Shown piece after piece: positions 909 to 20,491 of a stretch of 64,000 nt of DNA. The stretch is taken from positions 1-64,000 of the forward strand of contig CAWVRN010000015.1 of the NCBI GenBank assembly GCA_963932905.1, in the 5' to 3' direction. Below the pieces are notes generated by a model. It had not been told where the DNA came from. It made no database searches and worked only from the letters and a program-made list of their open reading frames with translations. This stretch comes from an uncultured Bdellovibrio sp. (GTDB taxonomy: Bacteria; Bdellovibrionota; Bdellovibrionia; Bdellovibrionales; Bdellovibrionaceae). Made by a program: the position numbers and the translations under genes. The first letter of the stretch is position 1; every line of letters starts with the position of its first letter.

Positions 909-2645
909 ATGTACAAATTGCGCGATTACCAGCAACAAGCCGTTAACAATGCGGTTAAATTTTTTCAAAAACGTCGCGAACCTATAGTTATTGTTTTACC
1001 TACCGGTGCAGGAAAAAGTTTGGTCATTGCGGAATTGGCGCGGATCGCTCGCGGTCGCGTGTTAGTCTTGGCTCATGTAAAAGAACTGGTCGAGCAAAAT
1101 TACGAAAAGTATAAAAGCTACGGATTATCAGCTGGTGTTTTTTCTGCTAGTCTAGGAAAAAAAGATTGGGACGACAAAGCGATTTTTGGCAGTGTTCAAT
1201 CAGTAGCTCGCGCTCCCGATGAATTCTTTGATAATTTTTCTTTACTTGTTATCGATGAATGTCATCGCGTCGCTGATGAGAGCGAAACACAATACCAAGA
1301 AGTTATTAAAAAACTACGAGATAGAAATCCTGATTTGTGCATTTTGGGCTTAACGGCAACACCCTACCGCATGGGACTTGGTTGGATTTACGAATTCAAT
1401 CAATCCGGCGAAATGAAAACAGATAAAAAGCGATTTTTCAAACAGTGTGTTTATGAACTACCACTGGCATACATGATCAAGAACAAGTATTTAACGGCTC
1501 CAGTAAAAATCGACATTCCCGTTACCAGCTATGACTTTTCGGAACTAACAGATAGAGATCGCACCTACACAACTGCCGAAGTTGAAGAGATTCTAAAAAG
1601 TCAAAAGCGTCTGACTCCGTTGATTATTAAGAATATTATCGACATCACTGAACGTTATAAAAGAAAAGGTGTCATGATTTTCAGTAGCTCGGTAAAACAC
1701 GCCGAAGAAATCATGACTTATTTGCCTGAAGGTGATGCTCGCGTTGTTTTGGGTGACACCGATATCAAAGATAGAAATGATATCGTAAACGATTTTAAAA
1801 AAAGAAAATTTAAATACCTGGTCAATGTCTCGGTATTAACAACTGGTTTCGACGCGCCTCACGTGGATGTGATTGCTATTATGCGCCCTACTGAATCGAA
1901 TAGTCTTTACCAACAAATCGTTGGCCGCGGACTTCGTCTGTCTGATCAGAAGAAAGATTGTTATGTTTTGGATTACACCGGCATGGGCCATGATCTTTAC
2001 GCACCTGAAATCGCTGACAAGCGGCCAAGCAAAGATACTGTTCCTGTGCGTGTTCCATGTCCTGTCTGTGAATTTGAAAATATCTTCTGGGGATATGCGG
2101 ACGATGACGGGAATTTGATCGAGCATTTTGGTCGCAAATGCAGAGGAGCGACTCAGGACCCCGTCACTTTTGATGTCAAACCGTGTGGTTTTCGATTTCG
2201 CTTTAAACTGTGCCATGCGTGCGGCAGTGAAAATGATGTAACAGCTAGAGAATGCGAAAAATGCAGTACCGTACTGATTGATGCCGATACGAAACTTAAG
2301 CAGGCTAAACTCTCTAAGAATGCACATGTTTTAACTCCCGATAGAATTACGTTTGAAGAACGCAAAGATAAAAATTTGAATCCTTACCTAGAAATCAGAT
2401 ACTACGATTATGATGGCCAATACGTCAGTGAGGCACATTTTTTTAATAACCCGTCAGCAATTAAGAAATTCAATATCAATTTTTTGCGCTCGCATTTACG
2501 TCGTCCTGAATTAGCTACTGATTTGGAATCGCCTTCAGATGTGATTCGATTTCAAAAACTGTTTCGCCTGCCGGCGTTTGTTATTGCACGCAAACAAGAC
2601 AAATACTGGAAGATCACTGAAAAAGTTTTCTCAGAGGAATTGTGA
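909..2645 (+). CDS. radD: DEAD/DEAH-box DNA repair helicase RadD/YejH
   Basis: LPTGAGKS Walker [17 protein letters not shown] motifs and C-terminal CxxC zinc clusters; N-terminus [12 protein letters not shown] typical of YejH. Confidence 0.9.
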
Positions 2646-2862
2646 ACCGCAGGATTTACTTCTGTTCCAAATTCTTAATTAGTTTTTTCAAGTGAGTCCG
2701 AAGAGTTTTAAATTCTCCCTCATGCAACTTAGTTTTACAGGCGATCGCATGCTGAATGTCTGAAAAAGTGCATATAGCTTGTCCGTATTCAAACGCGACT
2801 CGCGGTAACATCAAAGTCATTTTGGATGTGGTTTAAATACGTAAGTTAGGTATACTGCTAAA

Positions 2863-3723
2863 GTGATGAAACGAAGAACGATACTCGCAGCGGCAAGTAC
2901 GCTAGCCGCTGCTTCCGCAGCTTCTATATTAACGAGGTTTACTATGTCACAGCGAATGCCTGTATTATTTATTGGTCACGGATCACCGATGAACGCGATT
3001 GATACAAATGCCTATACGAAAACACTCACTGTGCTAGGACGAAATCTTCCCAAACCAAAAGCTATATTGATGGTTTCGGCGCACTGGATGACCGAAGGAA
3101 CTTACATTACCGATATGAAGAATCCAAAAACGATTCATGATTTCTACGGATTCCCTCAAAAGCTCTTTGATGTTCAGTACCCCGCTCCCGGTAGTCCTGA
3201 AATAGCAAAGCTCATTCAGGAAACTGTGCTGAATCCAAAAATTCACGGCGATAAAGAAATGTGGGGCTTAGATCATGGAACCTGGTCGGTGCTTAGACAT
3301 ATGTATCCTGATGCGGATATCCCGGTGATGCAATTAAGTGTCTACATGGCTCAACCGCCAGAATACCACGTCAAACTCGGTCAGCAGTTATCGATACTGC
3401 GCGATCAAGGGGTGTTAATTCTTGGCAGCGGGAACCTAGTTCACAATTTGCGACAAATTAAATGGGAACCGAATGCGCAGCCATTTGATTGGGCGGCTGA
3501 GTTTGATGCCTGGCTAAAAGAAAAACTGATAGATCGTGATTTCAAGGCGGTTCAAAATGATTTTCATAAAACAAAAGCCGGCCAACTGAGTGTGCCAACT
3601 TTAGATCACTATCTTCCCATGCATTATATTTTAGGTGCATCGGATAATCGTGACGAACTTAAATTTGAATACGAAGAAATGCAAAACGGTTCGATTTCTA
3701 TGCGCAGTTTTCGATTGGGTTAA
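2863..3723 (+). CDS. ygiD: 4,5-DOPA extradiol dioxygenase (LigB family, YgiD); alternative start at 2944
   Basis: FIGHGSPMNAI, SAHW, TIHDFYGFP, GLDHGTW, GSGNLVHNL motifs. Confidence 0.9.
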   Translation: MMKRRTILAAASTLAAASAASILTRFTMSQRMPVLFIGHGSPMNAIDTNAYTKTLTVLGRNLPKPKAILMVSAHWMTEGTYITDMKNPKTIHDFYGFPQKLFDVQYPAPGSPEIAKLIQETVLNPKIHGDKEMWGLDHGTWSVLRHMYPDADIPVMQLSVYMAQPPEYHVKLGQQLSILRDQGVLILGSGNLVHNLRQIKWEPNAQPFDWAAEFDAWLKEKLIDRDFKAVQNDFHKTKAGQLSVPTLDHYLPMHYILGASDNRDELKFEYEEMQNGSISMRSFRLG

Positions 3724-12055: not shown

Positions 12056-12949
12056 TTAACGAGGCAGGTTTTTAAGATAATCTAAACCGCCTGTAATAGC
12101 GGCAACTTGTGCATCTACACAATTTTGAGCAGTTACTTTAGGACTATCCGGATAGACTTCGGTAGTCGTTGTATATTTAGCATTTGAAAACCCAGCGCAT
12201 AGAAAAAGTTTTTTCAAAGGATAATTAATCACCCCTTCCTGTTCTAACTTTTCACCAATTATGTTTCCGTATTCATCGGCGGGTGCAATATGAGTCACTT
12301 TTTTGACAGACTTAATAACGGCCGCTTGAAATTCAGGGCAGGGATTTTCAGTATCACCTACGGCATAAAATCCATCTGGAATTTCAGACCACGGCTCTTC
12401 TGGTTTTCCATCACGCAAAGCTTTAGCGGGACGAAAAATCGTGTTGTCTGTATCCGTTGTTTCATGCAGATCGAAATGCGCGTACAGATCTTGGCTATAA
12501 GGCGCTACAGCTTTTAGAAATAAATCACATTCTTCGGCGGGACTATTGGGAACAAAGGAACGATTCGGATCAATAGCTTTTGGGTTCCAACGGTTGACGG
12601 TTTCGTAGGCCCATGGACTGATACACGGAGTGCAAACAAAATTAAATTTATCTGAATATTTGAAAGCTTCACGATCCATAAATGCGATCGCGCCGTGAAC
12701 GCCACTGGTTTCATACCCATGAACACCGCCCGTGATTAGGATCGTTTTTTTATTAGGATCAAAGTTTTTAGATTTCACCAGGAACAAGGGGTAGAGTTCT
12801 TTATTCAAAGATAAAGCCCCGTACGGAGTGACTTCAAACTTTGATTTCAATTCTTGGATTTTCGTTACGACTTCTTTTAAGTAAGAACGTTTGACCAGTT
12901 GTTGTTGAAACCAGATTTCCTTTTCTGCTTGTCCCCATGCTGCTGCCAT
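12056..12949 (-). CDS. M14 family metallocarboxypeptidase (ASTE/ASPA-like)
   Basis: GGVHGYE, NR, DLHET, TTEVYP motifs; start moved to ATG 12949 after AGGAG. Confidence 0.85.
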   Translation of the reverse strand: MAAAWGQAEKEIWFQQQLVKRSYLKEVVTKIQELKSKFEVTPYGALSLNKELYPLFLVKSKNFDPNKKTILITGGVHGYETSGVHGAIAFMDREAFKYSDKFNFVCTPCISPWAYETVNRWNPKAIDPNRSFVPNSPAEECDLFLKAVAPYSQDLYAHFDLHETTDTDNTIFRPAKALRDGKPEEPWSEIPDGFYAVGDTENPCPEFQAAVIKSVKKVTHIAPADEYGNIIGEKLEQEGVINYPLKKLFLCAGFSNAKYTTTTEVYPDSPKVTAQNCVDAQVAAITGGLDYLKNLPR

Positions 12950-13168
12950 GAAATCTCCTGTGCTAGCCATAACTTTGCCTAACATAAATGAGGTGATTGG
13001 TATTCGCAAAATATTTCCTATTTAAAACGCATTTTTTCCATAATTAAAAACCATCAGCAGGCCTCGAGGACACATAAAATAATTATTCTTAATTTAAAGA
13101 CTCCGTCCTGAATATCGGACGGAATCTTCTTTTAAAATACGTTTAATTCGATCTGAGTCAAATTTTTC

Positions 13169-13185
13169 TTGGTCTCCCCGTTGCT
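13169..13185 (+). promoter_or_regulatory. putative sigma-54 (-24/-12) promoter of the RiPP-like locus
   Basis: TTGG-TCTCCCCGTT-GCT: GG(13171-72)-N10-GC(13183-84), about 45 nt upstream of the small ORF. Confidence 0.55.
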
Positions 13186-13227
13186 TTTGTGACTACTCGG
13201 CAATCAAGCCAACGCAAAGGGGAACTT

Positions 13228-13350
13228 ATGCAATTAGAAATCAATCTTGAAACTGTGAGCCTGTCTTCGGTTGAATCTGAACGAATTCAAATTATTGAAG
13301 CAGAACTAGCTCAGACGGAATGTCACTTGGTGATGTTAGTTCTTGAGTAA
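13228..13350 (+). CDS. putative RiPP precursor peptide, 40 aa (MQLEINLETVSLSSVESERIQIIEAELAQTECHLVMLVLE)
   Basis: hand-translated; AAGGGGAA RBS; directly upstream of HExxH enzyme; below ORF-track length cutoff. Confidence 0.7.
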   Translation: MQLEINLETVSLSSVESERIQIIEAELAQTECHLVMLVLE

Positions 13351-13356
13351 ATAAAT

Positions 13357-13384
13357 AAGGCCGATAGATAGATCTATCGGCCTT
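13357..13384 (+). terminator. perfect stem-loop between precursor and modifying enzyme (partial terminator or mRNA stabiliser)
   Basis: AAGGCCGATAGA-TAGA-TCTATCGGCCTT. Confidence 0.7.
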
Positions 13385-13402
13385 TCACTTTCAGGGGAAG
13401 GT

Positions 13403-14245
13403 ATGTATTACACTTTGGGATTTAAAAGAAATATCGAAAATTGTGTTAAACTGATCTCAACAAAAGAAACTAATAAATTTAATTCATTATTAGATATAAA
13501 ATCCGCACTAGCTCGATATATCGATCAGGTTCAACCGCAAAACAGAATCTCTTTTCCAATAGATGATTTGCCGGTTTTAATTTTTTCTTTAGATCAAAAA
13601 GCAATCCTGGCCAGTGCATTCTGTGTCCGGTCTCAATTAAACGACTTAGCGCAGGCATCTATGATTGAAGAACTCGTGGTTCCTGACGAGGAAGTCTATC
13701 AACAACGTCTTCTTGATGCTATTCGCCTGATAGAAACCCAAAATCTGGAACTGGCATCATTAATTAAAATTATTTTTCGCTACACTTTTTTTGGCAAATC
13801 TTCAAAAGCACATGGAGGATCGTCTTCGAACGCACTAGGTGTATTGTGGTTAAATCCTAGTGATAAGTGGACCATTCAAGACTATTGTGAATTCATTGTC
13901 CACGAATTAACTCACCAACTCTTATTTTTAGATGAACGTATCTATGGTCATTATTCTCAATATCCAAAAATTTCCTTAAAAGAAAACTTTGCGTTTTCAA
14001 CAATCCTTAAACGATCTCGCCCACTAGATAAAGTAATTCATAGCTATTTTGTCGGCCTAAATGTTTTAAGTTATCGCAAAGAAAACTGGAATAATGAAAA
14101 TGCTTCCTACATACTTCATCCACCGATCGATCAGCTATTGCAAGGATTAGAAGATACGCGCAATTCTTTGACTTCAACTCACTGGTCGCTGATGACTGCT
14201 CGGGTGAGCGAGCTTTTTGAGGAACCTTATGCTAGAGCTATTTAA
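13403..14245 (+). CDS. standalone aKG-HExxH-type peptide-modifying enzyme (putative beta-hydroxylase)
   Basis: GGSSS..LG.LW, IVHELTHQLL and KRSRPLDKVIHS motifs matching the HExxH...RP....H pattern. Confidence 0.7.
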   Translation: MYYTLGFKRNIENCVKLISTKETNKFNSLLDIKSALARYIDQVQPQNRISFPIDDLPVLIFSLDQKAILASAFCVRSQLNDLAQASMIEELVVPDEEVYQQRLLDAIRLIETQNLELASLIKIIFRYTFFGKSSKAHGGSSSNALGVLWLNPSDKWTIQDYCEFIVHELTHQLLFLDERIYGHYSQYPKISLKENFAFSTILKRSRPLDKVIHSYFVGLNVLSYRKENWNNENASYILHPPIDQLLQGLEDTRNSLTSTHWSLMTARVSELFEEPYARAI

Positions 14246-15596
14246 AATAAAACACGGTAAATACATGCTGATTAGTTTTACCCTGCAGCAGATCTGTGCG
14301 GCGGCTACGTCGTGGGCGTTGGTCGATTTTATTAAAGACGTTTCCAATCCTGAAACTTTTCACGTGTCCAAGATTTTGGTTTTGATTTTGATCGCTATAT
14401 CACCTTATCTGCCTGGGTTTGTGGGAAATTACTTCTATCATATGTGGACCACTTTTGCGCGTTCAGCAAATGTGAAACTTTTTGCGGATTTGATCGATGG
14501 CAGAAAAGCGTGGGTATTTAACACCAAACAACGCGACGATGTCTTTGCCTTGCAACGTGAACATATAGGCTTGATAGAAGAAACGACGCGATTCCTATTC
14601 TTGAACTTCCCGGCTATGCTAAGTTTGGTTTTCAATTCGATTGCGATCGGTTTTCTGTTAGGGCAAGATATTATTTTGGGGATGATTGCTGGTTTTGTTA
14701 TTTCGGCGTTTCAGTTTTTCTTAGCACCTTACTTGACTGAAAAGAAGCAGAAACAAAAGCAAGAAACTCAATATGAAACTGAAAAGTCATTGCTAGGTTC
14801 TTGGCAGACATTGACTTTGAAAAACAAACCATTCTATCAGACGTCTCTTCAAACTATTTCAGGTCACACGAACACCACTGAATCGCTTGCTTCTGGAATT
14901 TATAGAATCGAAGCCCTGGCAAATATATTAGTTTTGATCGCATCATTCATTCCTATAACTTGGATTCTATTCGTTAAATTTAACAGCAGACAATTAGATC
15001 AAGTATTTCTAATGTCTTTAGGTGTTTTGCTTCCACGCATTCTGCAGATTTTTAATATGAGTTCAAATTTAATTCTAGCGGGACAAGCGCTGCAAGCCCT
15101 CAGAATTAAATGGCGATCATTCGAAGAACGCCTATCAAAGCATTACACTGTCGAGCGATTAGAAGATAGAAATACGGGAAAATTAATTTCCATTATTGAT
15201 ACTAAGACAAACCTGTCGTCACCGATTGAGGATATTCTGGCTGCCAACGCTCGAGGTAGATATCTAGTGTCGGGACCAAATGGCAGCGGCAAATCAACAC
15301 TATGCTTGAGTCTTAAGGGCGATAAAGAAAATATTTTCTATCTACCTGCTAAATATGAAAACCCACATCTCGACATCAAAGGATCAACCGGACAACTCAA
15401 GCTTGCCGAGTTAAAATGGCTAGCTGAAAACCGATCGCTCTATTCGATGGTATTATTAGACGAATGGGATGCTAACTTAGACGCCGAAGCCACTGCTATT
15501 GGCGATTCTACAATTCAAAGCATCGCAGAAAACTGTCTAGTATTTGAAGTCCGTCACAAAACAACCGCTACTGAGCCGATTTCAAAAACTCGGTAA
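14229..15596 (+). CDS. ABC exporter (TMD plus short, degenerate NBD)
   Basis: several TM segments, then GPNGSGKST Walker A, STGQ signature, LLDEWDANLD Walker B; overlaps upstream gene. Confidence 0.75.
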   Translation: MLELFKIKHGKYMLISFTLQQICAAATSWALVDFIKDVSNPETFHVSKILVLILIAISPYLPGFVGNYFYHMWTTFARSANVKLFADLIDGRKAWVFNTKQRDDVFALQREHIGLIEETTRFLFLNFPAMLSLVFNSIAIGFLLGQDIILGMIAGFVISAFQFFLAPYLTEKKQKQKQETQYETEKSLLGSWQTLTLKNKPFYQTSLQTISGHTNTTESLASGIYRIEALANILVLIASFIPITWILFVKFNSRQLDQVFLMSLGVLLPRILQIFNMSSNLILAGQALQALRIKWRSFEERLSKHYTVERLEDRNTGKLISIIDTKTNLSSPIEDILAANARGRYLVSGPNGSGKSTLCLSLKGDKENIFYLPAKYENPHLDIKGSTGQLKLAELKWLAENRSLYSMVLLDEWDANLDAEATAIGDSTIQSIAENCLVFEVRHKTTATEPISKTR

Positions 15597-16431
15597 TAAT
15601 TGTCAAACTAGCTTGCGCCATCTCGGGCGAACTGTTTGAAACATCACCGATAAAATTATCGTGAGGTCCTGGCAACACGGCAAATCGGCCTTTCGGTAAC
15701 AGTCGTGTTACTTGAATTCCGTGTTCAACACTGGCTACGTCTTGATCGGTTTGCATGATCAACACCGGAATTTGAACTTTCTGAATTGATTTTGTTGGGA
15801 CGTCTTTAAATTCTTTCATTCGTGTTGAATCAAATTTGAACATTTTCACTAGATCGCTAGGCTTAGGCGAATTTTTTAAATAGGCATCTTTTAATTCTTG
15901 AGGCATATCGTTCAATGAAGATTTATCCATGGCTTGCCAGAACTGTTTCGGTGCCCCACTGCGGCTGTATAGCCCCGAACCTAAAACCATTTTTTTCAAA
16001 ACGTCGGGATGACGAATGGCAATGTACATTCCCGTCGTCGCGCCGTTACTGAAACCAAGAAACAGGGCGTTTTCAATTTTTAATTGCTTTAAGGCCGCAG
16101 CAATATCATCAGCCGTATTTTCAAAACCAAATGCTCTATCGGTAGCTGGCGATTTTCCATGTCCTTGTTCATCAAATGCAATAACTTTGAAATTCTTTGC
16201 TAATGTGGCGATTCCTTTTCCAAAACTGACGTGAATGTCAGAACCACCACCATGCAACAACACTAGTGGTTGGCCTGACCCGTACATTTCGTAATACAGG
16301 TCAGTACCGTTTACAGAAACATAGCCGCTTTGGCTAGGAACTAACTTGGAAAATTCTGTTTTTGTAGATTGAGACTTAGTTGCGCACGCAATGATTGAAA
16401 GAACGAAAATTGAAAGAATAAGTTTTATCAT
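15568..16431 (-). CDS. alpha/beta hydrolase, probable lipoprotein
   Basis: LLHGG, GFSNG nucleophile elbow; IIAC lipobox. Confidence 0.85.
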   Translation of the reverse strand: MIKLILSIFVLSIIACATKSQSTKTEFSKLVPSQSGYVSVNGTDLYYEMYGSGQPLVLLHGGGSDIHVSFGKGIATLAKNFKVIAFDEQGHGKSPATDRAFGFENTADDIAAALKQLKIENALFLGFSNGATTGMYIAIRHPDVLKKMVLGSGLYSRSGAPKQFWQAMDKSSLNDMPQELKDAYLKNSPKPSDLVKMFKFDSTRMKEFKDVPTKSIQKVQIPVLIMQTDQDVASVEHGIQVTRLLPKGRFAVLPGPHDNFIGDVSNSSPEMAQASLTIITEFLKSAQ

Positions 16432-17223: not shown

Positions 17224-18069
17224 TTACAGCGTAAAACTAGCGAGTCTAACTAACTCGCGGCCCGCTCTGTTCGCCAAAACATCTCTTCGATACGCAACAA
17301 ATATTTTATCTTCGAAAATAGGTAATTTGGAATCATACGGTACCAAATCCGCGCCATCAGCCTTAGCTACGCGTTCGGGAAGAATACCCACGCCCTGTCC
17401 TGCTAATGTCAGCGTTCTGATTAGCTCTAGACTGTTGCTGTTGACAAGCTGCCAATCATGAAATTCTTTTGCGTGTGTTTTTCCTAAGATACTTTGAATC
17501 TGCATCATATTCGCGTCTGCGAATATTTTTTTGGGAACATTCACAGTATCGCGAGCACGCCAGAATAAAACACGATCATCGCCCATTTTTTTTAATATTA
17601 AATCAGGATGCCGTACTGGATTTACAACAAATCCAAGATCAATATCGTAAGACACAACACGCTCGGTAATTTTTCTAGAAAAATCGTGAACCAAATCAAT
17701 ATCAATCCCAGGAGCTTCCTTGTGCAAACCTTCAAGAAATCGTGGCAATGTATACGCGCCTACACTTTGATGGCAGCCAATTTTAAAGTGACCTTGTATA
17801 TTTTCCATCGACTGACCTAAATCATGATGAAGATCATTCCAAGAATCTAATAACCCATGGGCTTTTTTATAGAACAATGTTCCTTGGTCAGTCGCGACCA
17901 CGCCTTGCTTTGTTCGGTGAAATAATTTTACACCCAGCTTCTCTTCCAAGCGCTGCAGACTCAGTGTTAAAGTCGGCTGGGTTACACCAAGCCTGATTGC
18001 AGACTTGGAAACATGTCGAGTTTGATAGACTTCAATAAAATATTCGATTTCGGTCGGTGTCGCTAACAT
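17224..18069 (-). CDS. LysR family transcriptional regulator
   Basis: SKSA.RLGVTQPTLT..LQRLE..LG..LF.R HTH. Confidence 0.9.
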   Translation of the reverse strand: MLATPTEIEYFIEVYQTRHVSKSAIRLGVTQPTLTLSLQRLEEKLGVKLFHRTKQGVVATDQGTLFYKKAHGLLDSWNDLHHDLGQSMENIQGHFKIGCHQSVGAYTLPRFLEGLHKEAPGIDIDLVHDFSRKITERVVSYDIDLGFVVNPVRHPDLILKKMGDDRVLFWRARDTVNVPKKIFADANMMQIQSILGKTHAKEFHDWQLVNSNSLELIRTLTLAGQGVGILPERVAKADGADLVPYDSKLPIFEDKIFVAYRRDVLANRAGRELVRLASFTL

Positions 18070-18218
18070 ATAAGTACGCTATCACACGATATTCAGTTTT
18101 GGAAATGGACGTCGATTTAACGTTACCTGCCAAATCAACGCATACAAAATTAAGCTCGCAGCTGCATAGGGTAGATTTCTAGGATCTAATCCACTTTCGA
18201 TCGCGATTCCCCCAAGGG

Positions 18219-19658
18219 TCATAATAACGACTCGGGAAAAAGTGATTCAATTTTATCTAATGACGTTACCGATTGGATGTAGGAATCGGGGCGCACAAGA
18301 ATAGCTAGATTTTTATATAGAGAACTCTTTGTCCACACATCCCTATCAGAACTCGAGCCAACACGAATAACGCTCACTGACTTCGATGTATTTAATTCTA
18401 CGTTAGCATCTCCAAATACAAACAAAGTAAATCGTGAATAATCAAGTAACGAATATAATCTAGTTTTTTCGTTCCCTTGAAACACTTCGAAGTCAAACAA
18501 CCTTGAACCACAAGGACCCTGTTTACCATAACGAATTCCCATCCCCGTGATGTTGCCAGAGCGTTTCTGAACGATGTTTACATAGTCTTGCGCATGAGTT
18601 CCCTTTTCAGAATACTTTGTCGAACGAACCAGTTCACCCGAGGATTCAATCACACTTTGAGCCACTGGTTTACGTTCACTTTCATAGCTATTTAGGATGT
18701 CTTTCGAAGCACCTGATTTTAAAACCAATCCCAGTTTCCACATCAGATTAAATGCGTCGGCAAGTCCCGTGTTTAATCCCTGTCCACCATTCACCGAATG
18801 AACGTGGCACGCATCACCGGCTAAGAAAACGCGATCGTTAACAAAAAATTTCTCGGCCACCGATTCCTTCACAGAAAACTGGGAAAACCAAACGACTTCT
18901 TTAAATTTCAATCTGTGAGGTTTCATCGCTCGATTAATTTTTGCTAAAGCATCTTCAAACGTAAAGTCTTTGGTATCCATTCTAATATAAAAACGATCGA
19001 TGTTACCTTCTCTAGGTATCCAAGCCACATCTGATGTTTCAGCTTGGAATACAATGATTTCGGGAACTTTTTGAAAATCAGTTTCGATAACGCCGTCAAT
19101 AACTGCCCAAATGATCTGCGGTCGTACGATTTCAAAAGGCACTTTAAATAGTTTACGGACAAACGAGCGTGATCCGTCGGCACCAATAACATAGCTAGAT
19201 TGAATTCTTTGACCGCCTGATAACGTTGTCAGACAGCCCTCTGCATTCACTTCGATATTTTCCACGGAAGTAGAACGTTTCACAGGTGCCGATGTTTCAT
19301 TAAGTTTACGATCTAATAGTTTCTCTACATAAGACTGCCCGATCATCAGGAAATGTTTGTGGAGACAGCCTTCAAGACTATCCCACCAGGATGACTGACG
19401 CGAAAGAAATCTACCGTCCGCCCATACTGAACTTGTATTGCATGGTTTTCCAAGTGGGTACAGGTCATCAAACAAACCCGCAACTTCCATCAATTGCAAC
19501 GTTCTCGCGTTCAAAGCATCGGCTCGGCCGACCTCTAGCGGTCCATCTGACTTATCCACAACGACAACACTTAATCCACATTGCAGCCCTAAGTACGCAC
19601 TCATTAATCCTACCGGTCCGGCACCCACAATAACGATGTCTACATTTTGAATACTCAT
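18219..19658 (-). CDS. FAD-dependent monooxygenase (PheA/TfdB family)
   Basis: GAGPVG, GADGSRS, LAGDACH.HS..GGQGLNTG motifs. Confidence 0.9.
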   Translation of the reverse strand: MSIQNVDIVIVGAGPVGLMSAYLGLQCGLSVVVVDKSDGPLEVGRADALNARTLQLMEVAGLFDDLYPLGKPCNTSSVWADGRFLSRQSSWWDSLEGCLHKHFLMIGQSYVEKLLDRKLNETSAPVKRSTSVENIEVNAEGCLTTLSGGQRIQSSYVIGADGSRSFVRKLFKVPFEIVRPQIIWAVIDGVIETDFQKVPEIIVFQAETSDVAWIPREGNIDRFYIRMDTKDFTFEDALAKINRAMKPHRLKFKEVVWFSQFSVKESVAEKFFVNDRVFLAGDACHVHSVNGGQGLNTGLADAFNLMWKLGLVLKSGASKDILNSYESERKPVAQSVIESSGELVRSTKYSEKGTHAQDYVNIVQKRSGNITGMGIRYGKQGPCGSRLFDFEVFQGNEKTRLYSLLDYSRFTLFVFGDANVELNTSKSVSVIRVGSSSDRDVWTKSSLYKNLAILVRPDSYIQSVTSLDKIESLFPESLL

Positions 19659-20491
19659 TTGTGACTCACTAACCGCGGATTATCTAGCGGAGGATTGCTT
19701 AACACATGCACACGTTGCAAATGACGAGGAGCCTTGGTTTCAAACCCTTCACGTCCATGCAGCAGAGAAAAGTTGTCAGAAACTACAACATCACCTTCTT
19801 GCCATTCGTGGGCATAGAAATTTTCTGGCGCATAGAGAGCCTCTTTTAATGTAGAATGAAATTTTTCAACGTCATTGCCGTTTACGCCCGTAAATTCCAA
19901 AGTCGGTGGATTTACGAAATTTCCAAAACCCGCGCTGGGCGGCTCGTTGTAGCGAATCACAGAGTGACCACGTAAGGGATGTGTATCGATCACTGGCGAC
20001 ACCGTGGTACTGTCATAGAATTCCATTTTACGCTGATATTTGCCGGTGACCTTGTTCCATAAATTTTTTACTTCGGCCGACGCTTTTTCTAAGGCCTGTA
20101 CTGTATCTGAAAATGTTGTCCGCCCACCTTGTCCTGCTTTGGGTGCTTTCACACAGTGAAACAACTGAAATTCAGGAACTTGCGGACGATACATTCCATC
20201 CCAATGCAGGGGAACATAGTTATTATCAAAAATGTGATCCTCTGGGTTGTTACGTTCTACTAATTCAAGAACTTTACCAAAAGGCCATACACTGATTTCA
20301 CCCCAGTGTTCGCAGTAATTAGCGAAATCATCAGCGCCTGAAAATGTATGAAAGCCTCTTAGTACAAGCAAACGTTCATTCCAAACTAGATCACGAAGCA
20401 TTTTCACATCAACGTCACGAACATCTTCATTAATTCCACGTGCCTCAACAATAACGCCAAACGGTTTATTGGGTTTGATATCAGGCTTCAC
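19655..20491 (-). CDS. TauD/TfdA Fe/2-oxoglutarate oxygenase, IsnB/PvcB-like
   Basis: PLHWDG, GGRTTF, HEW..GDVV..DNF.LLHGRE; adjacent to isonitrile synthase. Confidence 0.85.
   Translation of the reverse strand: MKPDIKPNKPFGVIVEARGINEDVRDVDVKMLRDLVWNERLLVLRGFHTFSGADDFANYCEHWGEISVWPFGKVLELVERNNPEDHIFDNNYVPLHWDGMYRPQVPEFQLFHCVKAPKAGQGGRTTFSDTVQALEKASAEVKNLWNKVTGKYQRKMEFYDSTTVSPVIDTHPLRGHSVIRYNEPPSAGFGNFVNPPTLEFTGVNGNDVEKFHSTLKEALYAPENFYAHEWQEGDVVVSDNFSLLHGREGFETKAPRHLQRVHVLSNPPLDNPRLVSHK

Follow-up and report, generated by a model that had tools for sequence, protein, structure and literature searches.

Oxygenases of the aKG-HExxH family were recognised only in 2024, and to our knowledge every stand-alone member characterised so far sits in a larger cluster beside other modifying enzymes. 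ChlBH/ChlH, a radical S-adenosylmethionine (SAM)-aKG-HExxH fusion of a triceptide pathway (PDB 8s5f), was reportedly the subject of work by Morishita et al. (Nat Chem 2024). Here we analyse a stretch of 64,000 nucleotides (hereafter the window, meaning the whole stretch) from an uncultured Bdellovibrio sp. (positions 1 to 64,000 of contig CAWVRN010000015.1, assembly GCA_963932905.1), in which a 40-codon peptide gene, a gene for a stand-alone aKG-HExxH-type enzyme and a gene for an ATP-binding cassette (ABC) exporter follow one another. We consider it likely that the three form a compact operon for a ribosomally synthesised and post-translationally modified peptide (RiPP), with a product that is presumably exported; judged from the sequences, that product is very probably a secreted, modified peptide.

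Stand-alone aKG-HExxH enzymes of RiPP pathways have been published, namely PflC/PosC of the Pseudomonas pfl and pos clusters (PMC12636437), and BpmH (biphenomycin) and PesO (nitrilobacillin; PMC13060819). PflC/PosC resemble the Bdellovibrio enzyme in standing alone and, as proposed for the window system, serving a leader-bearing precursor, in a recognition motif at or near the C-terminus in which Met is followed by an acidic residue (ARMD in pfl/pos, x-M-[I/L]-x-x-[D/E] here), and in a cluster with transporters and without a protease (PMC12636437). The pfl and pos pathways also require a fusion of a multinuclear non-heme iron-dependent oxidase (MNIO) with a nitroreductase, and a GNAT protein, whereas here the HExxH protein is the sole modifying enzyme; no MNIO-nitroreductase partner adjoins the cassette, whose neighbours encode an M14-like hydrolase and an alpha/beta hydrolase. 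The precursor in pfl and pos is a long peptide that combines a nitrile-hydratase-like leader with a poly-Gln tract (PMC12636437), in contrast to a peptide of 40 residues that has no Gln run, no ARMD motif and no leader of the nitrile hydratase leader peptide type. None of the 54 genome loci found with the conserved motifs of the present family comes from Pseudomonas. PesO and BpmH are likewise stand-alone hydroxylases in RiPP clusters, but act there as accessory tailoring enzymes beside MNIO, asparagine-synthetase-like or other class-defining enzymes (PMC13060819), whereas no other modifying enzyme is present here. ChlH shares the HExxH motif and an NCBIfam model with the window enzyme at only 16% identity and needs a cyclophane installed beforehand (PMC12636437), while the window system lacks a radical SAM domain as well as a partner that forms cyclophanes, and its core is free of aromatic residues. 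TMcin (PMC13712780) and SmaO/SmaX (PMC12186529), considered as possible relatives, turned out to be unrelated.

An earlier note on this DNA, made from the sequence alone, had proposed a radical-SAM-free RiPP class. The absence itself stands, since neither Pfam nor NCBIfam gave a radical SAM match in five scanned proteins (the three of the cassette and those of both flanking genes) and no radical SAM or SPASM domain lies beside or within the 280-aa enzyme, but the trait had already been published for the stand-alone enzymes named above and defines no new class. In the literature on HExxH RiPP enzymes we found no description of the precursor family and its motif, the enzyme clade, the short ABC subfamily that partners it or the three-gene cassette, and the clade may sit unlabelled in the supplementary networks of PMC12636437. 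It is possible, if somewhat doubtful, that the cassette and its relatives make up a new RiPP class, with an aKG-HExxH protein as the only class-defining enzyme, an ABC protein of its own with a minimal ATPase, often a sigma-54 promoter, and a short peptide in which a core Met is the only invariant residue. In that case the chemistry could be new to the enzyme family (hydroxylation of aliphatic residues such as Leu and Val in the window core, oxidation of the Met or of a residue adjoining it, or oxidative trimming of the C-terminus to an amide), and a bias toward predatory, intracellular and symbiotic bacteria would fit a signal or weapon in cell-cell interactions. The cassette is a bare minimum of one peptide, one enzyme and one pump, and a peptide of 40 residues with an enzyme of 280 offers a clean test system. 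The natural series of cores, from aromatic-Asp to all-aliphatic, could reveal how the enzyme recognises its substrate and where it oxidises, the shortened ATPase domain tests the minimal needs of an ABC motor, and the product can be sought directly in culturable hosts of family members.

The elements of the cassette are all present at 13102-15596 and are listed below by window coordinates, strand, description and basis; the four orthologous loci are the window and three related loci.

13102-13123, no strand: perfect 7-bp inverted repeat TCCGTCC-N8-GGACGGA (sequence; GTC-N10-GAC core in all four orthologous loci)
13170-13184, plus: sigma-54-type -24/-12 element TGGTCTCCCCGTTGC (pattern and position; TGG and TTGC invariant in all four loci)
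13216-13222, plus: ribosome-binding site (RBS) AAAGGGG, 5 nt ahead of the ATG at 13228 (AGG core retained in all four loci)
13228-13350, plus: precursor peptide gene, 40 aa and stop (conservation, pN/pS, core score, leader motif)
13357-13384, plus: hairpin with a perfect 12-bp stem and a 4-nt loop (sequence; compensatory changes)
13403-14245, plus: predicted stand-alone aKG-HExxH-type Fe(II)/2-oxoglutarate peptide oxygenase, 280 aa
14229-15596, plus: predicted type IV ABC half-transporter (exporter), 455 aa (structure model, Foldseek, motifs)

All the elements described in the earlier note can be recognised in this list, at the positions that it gave; the inverted repeat at 13102-13123 had gone unmentioned there. 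Its GG-N10-GC promoter-like site, RBS and perfect 12-bp hairpin were all found, the peptide has the acidic leader-like N-terminus and the C-terminal TECHLVMLVLE reported for it, the HExxH...RP....H pattern of the enzyme corresponds to H167-E-L-T-H171, R206-P207 and H213, and the ABC gene, which starts with an ATG at 14229, overlaps the enzyme gene by 17 nt. The probable predatory host that it had suggested agrees with the closest relatives, which carry the labels Bdellovibrio or Bdellovibrionaceae.

The putative precursor gene and its peptide family

The precursor frame begins with the ATG at 13228 and ends with a stop codon at 13348-13350. The earlier note had called it missing from the listing of open reading frames (ORFs); it is present as claimed, but the listing does hold it, solely within a 53-aa GTG frame at 13189-13350. 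The peptide has a putative leader, acidic and helical (MQLEINLETVSLSSVE...), and C-H-L-V-M-L-V-L-E as its putative C-terminal core. A tblastn search finds the peptide in related loci with 75-90% identity, immediately ahead of the enzyme gene. These loci supply three unique sequences besides the window, and in the resulting four-way DNA alignment conservation begins at the RBS and the ATG, with differences mainly at third codon positions. The frame is open in all four loci, the changes are mostly synonymous, the ratio of nonsynonymous to synonymous differences (pN/pS) lies between 0.03 and 0.24, and none of the final 11 residues differs although up to nine nucleotides do. Because pN/pS is low, the last 11 residues are invariant and the differences are biased to third positions, the 40-codon ORF is a real gene, and the alignment indicates that it is translated and under purifying selection.

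An alternative is that the ORF is a chance open frame in the promoter region and that the operon consists of the enzyme and ABC genes only. The ORF is short and listed only within the longer GTG frame, and the window peptide has no family match in Pfam or NCBIfam; 18 further peptides of the family likewise gave no significant match in either database. The same frame is nevertheless open in every orthologous locus with mostly synonymous changes, the RBS is conserved, and homologous peptides stand at the equivalent position in most of the wider set of loci described next, so that these sequence comparisons effectively refute a chance frame.

The wider set was assembled from 54 genome and 66 metagenome loci, found in scans with the conserved motifs of the enzyme, together with the loci of a scan of the genus, and comprises 123 loci that match the enzyme, with 103 unique enzymes among them. 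The earlier note had stated that its reading would be refuted if homologous loci had no conserved small ORF upstream, and the reading passes this check. Upstream sequence of 130 nt or more is available for 96 unique loci, of which 77 have a small ORF on the same strand, ending no more than 200 nt from the enzyme start, with a Met-centred motif (M-[ILVMF]-[AIVSTE]-[FWYHLIMV]) in its last 16 residues, the motif having been composed after inspection of the data. The 19 misses include several near-misses of the motif (L063, ending ...HLTMILVD, L015, L086 and L085), and in several more the enzyme is truncated or broken (L054, L057 and L100). A control profile, built from 67 peptides with the clade of the window excluded, was run over every unique locus (17,771 frames from stop to stop in total); it matched 75 adjacent upstream frames at E < 1e-3 and only three frames elsewhere, and these three are family peptides beside a broken enzyme gene (L054 and L057) or in a locus with the order peptide, ABC, enzyme (L094).

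In the peptides of the family an N-terminal helix motif and a C-proximal core are conserved, with no cleavage site seen. Around the invariant Met the core consensus reads L/F/M, N/R/V, M, I/V, A, F/Y/H/W, D, which approximates to [L/F]-x-M-[I/V]-A-[F/Y/H/W]-D, and core types track the enzyme tree. The absence of aromatic residues to which the earlier note had drawn attention holds for the window peptide but is peculiar to its derived clade, most members carrying F, Y, W or H at the aromatic position. In the enzyme tree the clade of the window nests with L007 (...FNMIIL) and L063 with an SH-aLRT support of 99; its neighbours are L008 (...FVMIAFDNQG) and L072 (...HLVMMAFN). Because the clade lies inside a family otherwise with aromatic-Asp cores, the all-aliphatic core MLVLE is, on this tree, a derived variant.

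Membership of the window peptide in this family is argued from its position, its short-motif score, the similarity of its leader and the enzyme tree. With a matrix derived from the other clades, no more than 41 of 17,389 control frames match or exceed the score of CHLVMLVLE (top 0.24%; p about 0.002), the leader motif M-x-[I/L]-E-x-[I/L]-[I/L]..[I/V]-[S/T]..[E/D] is common to the window peptide and distant members, and the tail of the peptide resembles ...AQECSHLIMIAFDE of L009. Several points weigh against reading the locus as a RiPP cassette of this family. Besides the retrospective choice of the motif, the peptide profile was trained on the same sequences that it later found, and the profile without the clade of the window misses the window peptide even at E < 10. 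The enzyme tree is a quick version of 90 rows from which fragments below 240 aa were dropped. Finally, a protein family scan found no protease for leader removal in the cassette.

Precursor genes of the family were overlooked by gene callers or labelled "hypothetical" in every source checked; a source name accompanies 16 of the 31 peptide-profile matches, and all are "hypothetical" except one mis-named DAHP synthase. In Photorhabdus tasmaniensis (L054) and Candidatus Cardinium sp. TP (L057) the precursor is intact and the enzyme gene is in fragments (pieces of 56 and 103 aa), and from their sequences these cassettes look pseudogenised.

The HExxH enzyme and its proposed chemistry

The hidden Markov model (HMM) search proposed in the earlier note bore out its assignment of 13403-14245. 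Residues 134-270 match TIGR04267 (aKG-HExxH-type peptide beta-hydroxylase; IPR026337) at E 1.4e-15 and 57.7 bits, where 40 is the cut-off, and this is the only match at cut-off, Pfam giving a sub-threshold DUF6055. H167, E168 and H171 of the H-E-L-T-H motif are invariant in 31 of 31 homologues, as are E178, R206, P207, D209, K210, H213, R225, H239 and P240. A profile of the enzyme run against PDB sequences reaches ChlH only at E 0.56, and a comparison of structures was therefore required; in the predicted structure the fold is of the ChlH/SjiH type and distinct from that of ordinary zincin proteases. By HMM and predicted fold the window enzyme is thus a member of the aKG-HExxH family. Its profile retrieved 988 representatives at E <= 1e-3 and 381 clusters (50% identity) at E <= 1e-30 among 1.84 billion, and among 150 listed matches nearly all are stand-alone proteins of about 280-300 aa.

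We propose that the enzyme acts on the 40-aa peptide, docking on the N-terminal leader helix and oxidising the C-terminal core H-L-V-M-L-V-L-E. In published work, aKG-HExxH enzymes beta-hydroxylate His and Asp (ChlH), Phe, Gln and Pro (PMC13060819), and PflC/PosC, whose oxygen chemistry needs the leader, hydroxylate Gln and cleave the backbone oxidatively at a C-terminal ARMD (PMC12636437). Mutants of the latter indicate that a small first residue favours attack at C-alpha and cleavage, and that a larger one (Gln, Val or Ser) leads to beta-hydroxylation (PMC12636437). Because the core of the window peptide holds only bulky aliphatic residues around the invariant Met, the likeliest outcome would be that one of the aliphatic residues is beta-hydroxylated; hydroxylation at C-alpha followed by oxidative trimming, in the manner of PflC/PosC, would be less likely here and, by the same analogy, is a live alternative in the Ala-containing majority of the family. 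If the Met shares the register of ARMD, the target would be Leu34, two positions before it, and the residue at this position is L, F or M in 45 of 52 cores.

The same protein could instead be a metalloprotease that cuts off the leader or shortens the C-terminus of a peptide pheromone or bacteriocin with no other modification before export by the ABC protein. The cluster has no other protease, and PflC supplied with Zn, Co or Fe hydrolyses a leaderless substrate (PMC12636437). Full-length precursor, however, is not hydrolysed by PflC (PMC12636437), the window enzyme passes a curated aKG-HExxH model, and R206, K210, H213, R225 and H239, which a plain zincin would not need, are invariant beyond the HExxH motif. 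We therefore regard proteolysis as an unlikely function and retain the oxygenase as the preferred reading.

The predicted exporter and the putative control elements

The third, translationally overlapping gene would encode a dedicated ABC half-transporter with a minimal ATPase domain that exports the product. The AlphaFold2 model (mean predicted local distance difference test score, pLDDT, 87.3) has six long transmembrane (TM) helices and a small alpha/beta domain, and Foldseek matched it to MsbA, IrtAB, BmrCD, McjD, PCAT1 and HlyB at E 3e-9 to 3e-7. Across 30 aligned homologues the conserved motifs are a Walker A (G-x-N-G-x-G-K-S/T), a signature-like S-T-G-Q, a Walker B (LLDEWDANLD) and a terminal EVRH, and within the membrane part the polar residues Q21 and R270 are invariant in the window protein and 29 homologues. 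Walker A and the signature are only about 30-35 residues apart, the His of the H-loop closes the chain, and the abbreviated nucleotide-binding domain comprises about 115 aa, without a canonical LSGGQ or a full helical subdomain and Q-loop. Curated families capture the protein poorly: none in Pfam or NCBIfam reaches its cut-off (ABC_tran scores 16.2 bits against 25, and NF045998, far under cut-off, covers only the TM domain and Walker A part), and ten relatives gave only two borderline ABC_tran matches (25.7 against 25). As modelled, the protein is a type IV fold exporter with an abbreviated ATPase domain, and sequence comparison indicates that the ABC partners are a conserved, unnamed subfamily whose ATPase domain is very short.

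Exporters of the McjD and PCAT types are similar in joining a six-helix TM domain and a C-terminal nucleotide-binding domain in one chain and in lying next to a peptide maturation gene. They differ in that the window protein is about 110 residues shorter, has the short distance from Walker A to S-T-G-Q and stops at the H-loop. It also begins directly with TM1 and has no C39 peptidase domain, unlike PCAT proteins, and the window peptide has no double-glycine leader. Export of the product is suggested by this fold and by linkage to the enzyme, the two genes being adjacent, overlapping and in one case fused.

Upstream of the precursor, transcription would start from the sigma-54-type promoter, and an activator protein that binds the palindrome ahead of it probably turns the promoter on. 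All four orthologous loci keep TGG and TTGC, and five of the eight spacer positions vary. Of 77 family loci, 19 have TGG-N8-TTGC ahead of the precursor, where 0.03 would be expected per region; many of the sites are canonical TGGCAC-N5-TTGC, and these loci are spread over about eight branches of the enzyme tree, related loci not being independent. The genome has one rpoN (one Sigma54_DBD match) and about 23 strong Sigma54_activat matches, and we infer from the sequence evidence that sigma-54 drives transcription. The inverted repeat is centred about 59 nt upstream of the -24 GG; because only GTC-N10-GAC is kept in the four loci and the flanks vary, a protein-binding site is a better fit than an RNA stem, and the repeat is a candidate upstream activating sequence.

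Between precursor and enzyme, the hairpin shows compensatory changes in 4 of 11 predicted pairs (four sequences), and among the 66 family loci whose gap measures 25 nt or more a hairpin has z < -2 in 45 and z < -3 in 37, scored against mononucleotide shuffles. The U-tract of the window hairpin on the plus strand is poor, and we read this hairpin not as a strong stop but as a probable partial terminator or stabiliser of the transcript. It would thereby set the precursor:enzyme ratio, with precursor transcript exceeding enzyme transcript. On the other side of the balance for these control elements are the use of mononucleotide shuffles, the weakness of the U-tract, the absence of sigma-54 activator genes from the contig of the window, and the frequency of TGG-N8-TTGC within the window, where 13 matches against 8.2 expected amount to no enrichment.

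The hairpin also admits a regulatory explanation, in which the small ORF is a leader peptide that attenuates expression of the enzyme and ABC genes and the substrate of the enzyme lies elsewhere, in a cellular protein or another peptide. The stop codon lies 6 nt ahead of the hairpin, so that a terminating ribosome would cover the 5' arm, and hairpins are common at the corresponding position in the family. Selection nevertheless acts on the amino-acid sequence, most strongly at the C-terminal core; the core motif and leader helix are conserved across at least ten phylum labels; and core types co-diversify with the enzyme. Moreover, eleven loci have almost no gap, and hence no room for a hairpin, and still keep the peptide, and no alternative antiterminator structure was seen. 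Attenuation is accordingly a very improbable role for the ORF, which we continue to treat as the precursor gene.

Linkage, distribution and neighbouring genes

An exporter is the usual third gene among homologous loci, in line with the earlier note's overlapping ABC gene. The short ABC type is present in 62 of the 80 unique loci with at least 1400 nt downstream, and where both flanks are available (76 loci) 54 have peptide and ABC, 13 the peptide only, five the ABC only and four neither, counts that are inflated by related, non-independent loci. In Bordetella sp. 02P26C-1 (L025:3806-6070) enzyme and ABC form a single ORF of 754 aa, in which TIGR04267 (78 bits) spans residues 112-262 and the ABC exporter occupies 320-754, and by its sequence this is a natural fusion of modifier and pump. 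A metagenome locus (L094) has the order peptide, ABC, enzyme at 3-236, 1129-2535 and 2540-3397.

The loci with the peptide only are mostly actinobacterial and rhizobial and carry an unnamed protein of about 365 aa in place of the ABC. Found after the enzyme gene in 17 loci, this protein has no Pfam or NCBIfam match and, from its sequence and position, is probably a second, unassigned modifying or processing protein. Examples are L112:4416-5507, L110:3307-4404, L040:4689-5804, L049:4743-5855, L046:4861-5976, L051:4148-5227 and L121:4867-5961; such loci mostly have no ABC gene, and their peptides end in ...NMVAFD. Genes added at other loci encode SAM methyltransferases, a JmjC protein (Vibrio), a B12-radical SAM protein (Streptomyces) and a second HExxH paralogue, and variable tailoring genes around a constant precursor-enzyme pair are the usual anatomy of a RiPP family. 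One such paralogue, divergent and matching TIGR04267 at 40.5 bits, lies between the first enzyme and the ABC gene at L017:4881-5792 (Bdellovibrionia).

The cassette family spans about ten phylum labels, and strains of Photorhabdus, Xenorhabdus, Vibrio, Bordetella, Streptomyces and Calothrix carry members of it. It is over-represented in predatory, intracellular and symbiotic bacteria, namely Bdellovibrionota, Chlamydiota, Legionella, Cardinium, Photorhabdus/Xenorhabdus and Endozoicomonas. Within the genus the enzyme occurs in three of ten genomes, that of the window included. Two genomes of the genus without an enzyme match retain traces of the ABC gene beside the M14-like gene, an N-terminal fragment with 61% identity in one (G008; L128, 3-455) and a 29-residue remnant in the other (G009; L129, 3175-3261). 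Because these remnants persist where the enzyme is absent, the sequences suggest an old cassette that is undergoing loss in some species.

Neither gene flanking the cassette in the window appears to belong to it. The M14-like hydrolase (12056-13009) was considered as a trimming enzyme and rejected, as it is syntenic in the genus only, where it occurs in nine of ten genomes against three for the enzyme, and it has no match in distant family loci. The alpha/beta hydrolase gene (15568-16431, minus strand), which converges on the ABC gene, was rejected as a cassette part because the closest relative (L005) has no such gene in its syntenic locus, where the order superoxide dismutase, M14-like gene, cassette, ORF and LysR is otherwise kept; it represents a lineage-specific insertion or loss. 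Further along the window, translations read by eye rather than searched against families suggest a LysR regulator, a 479-aa FAD-dependent monooxygenase-like ORF and a 278-aa TauD-like ORF in a row at 17224-20491 on the minus strand.

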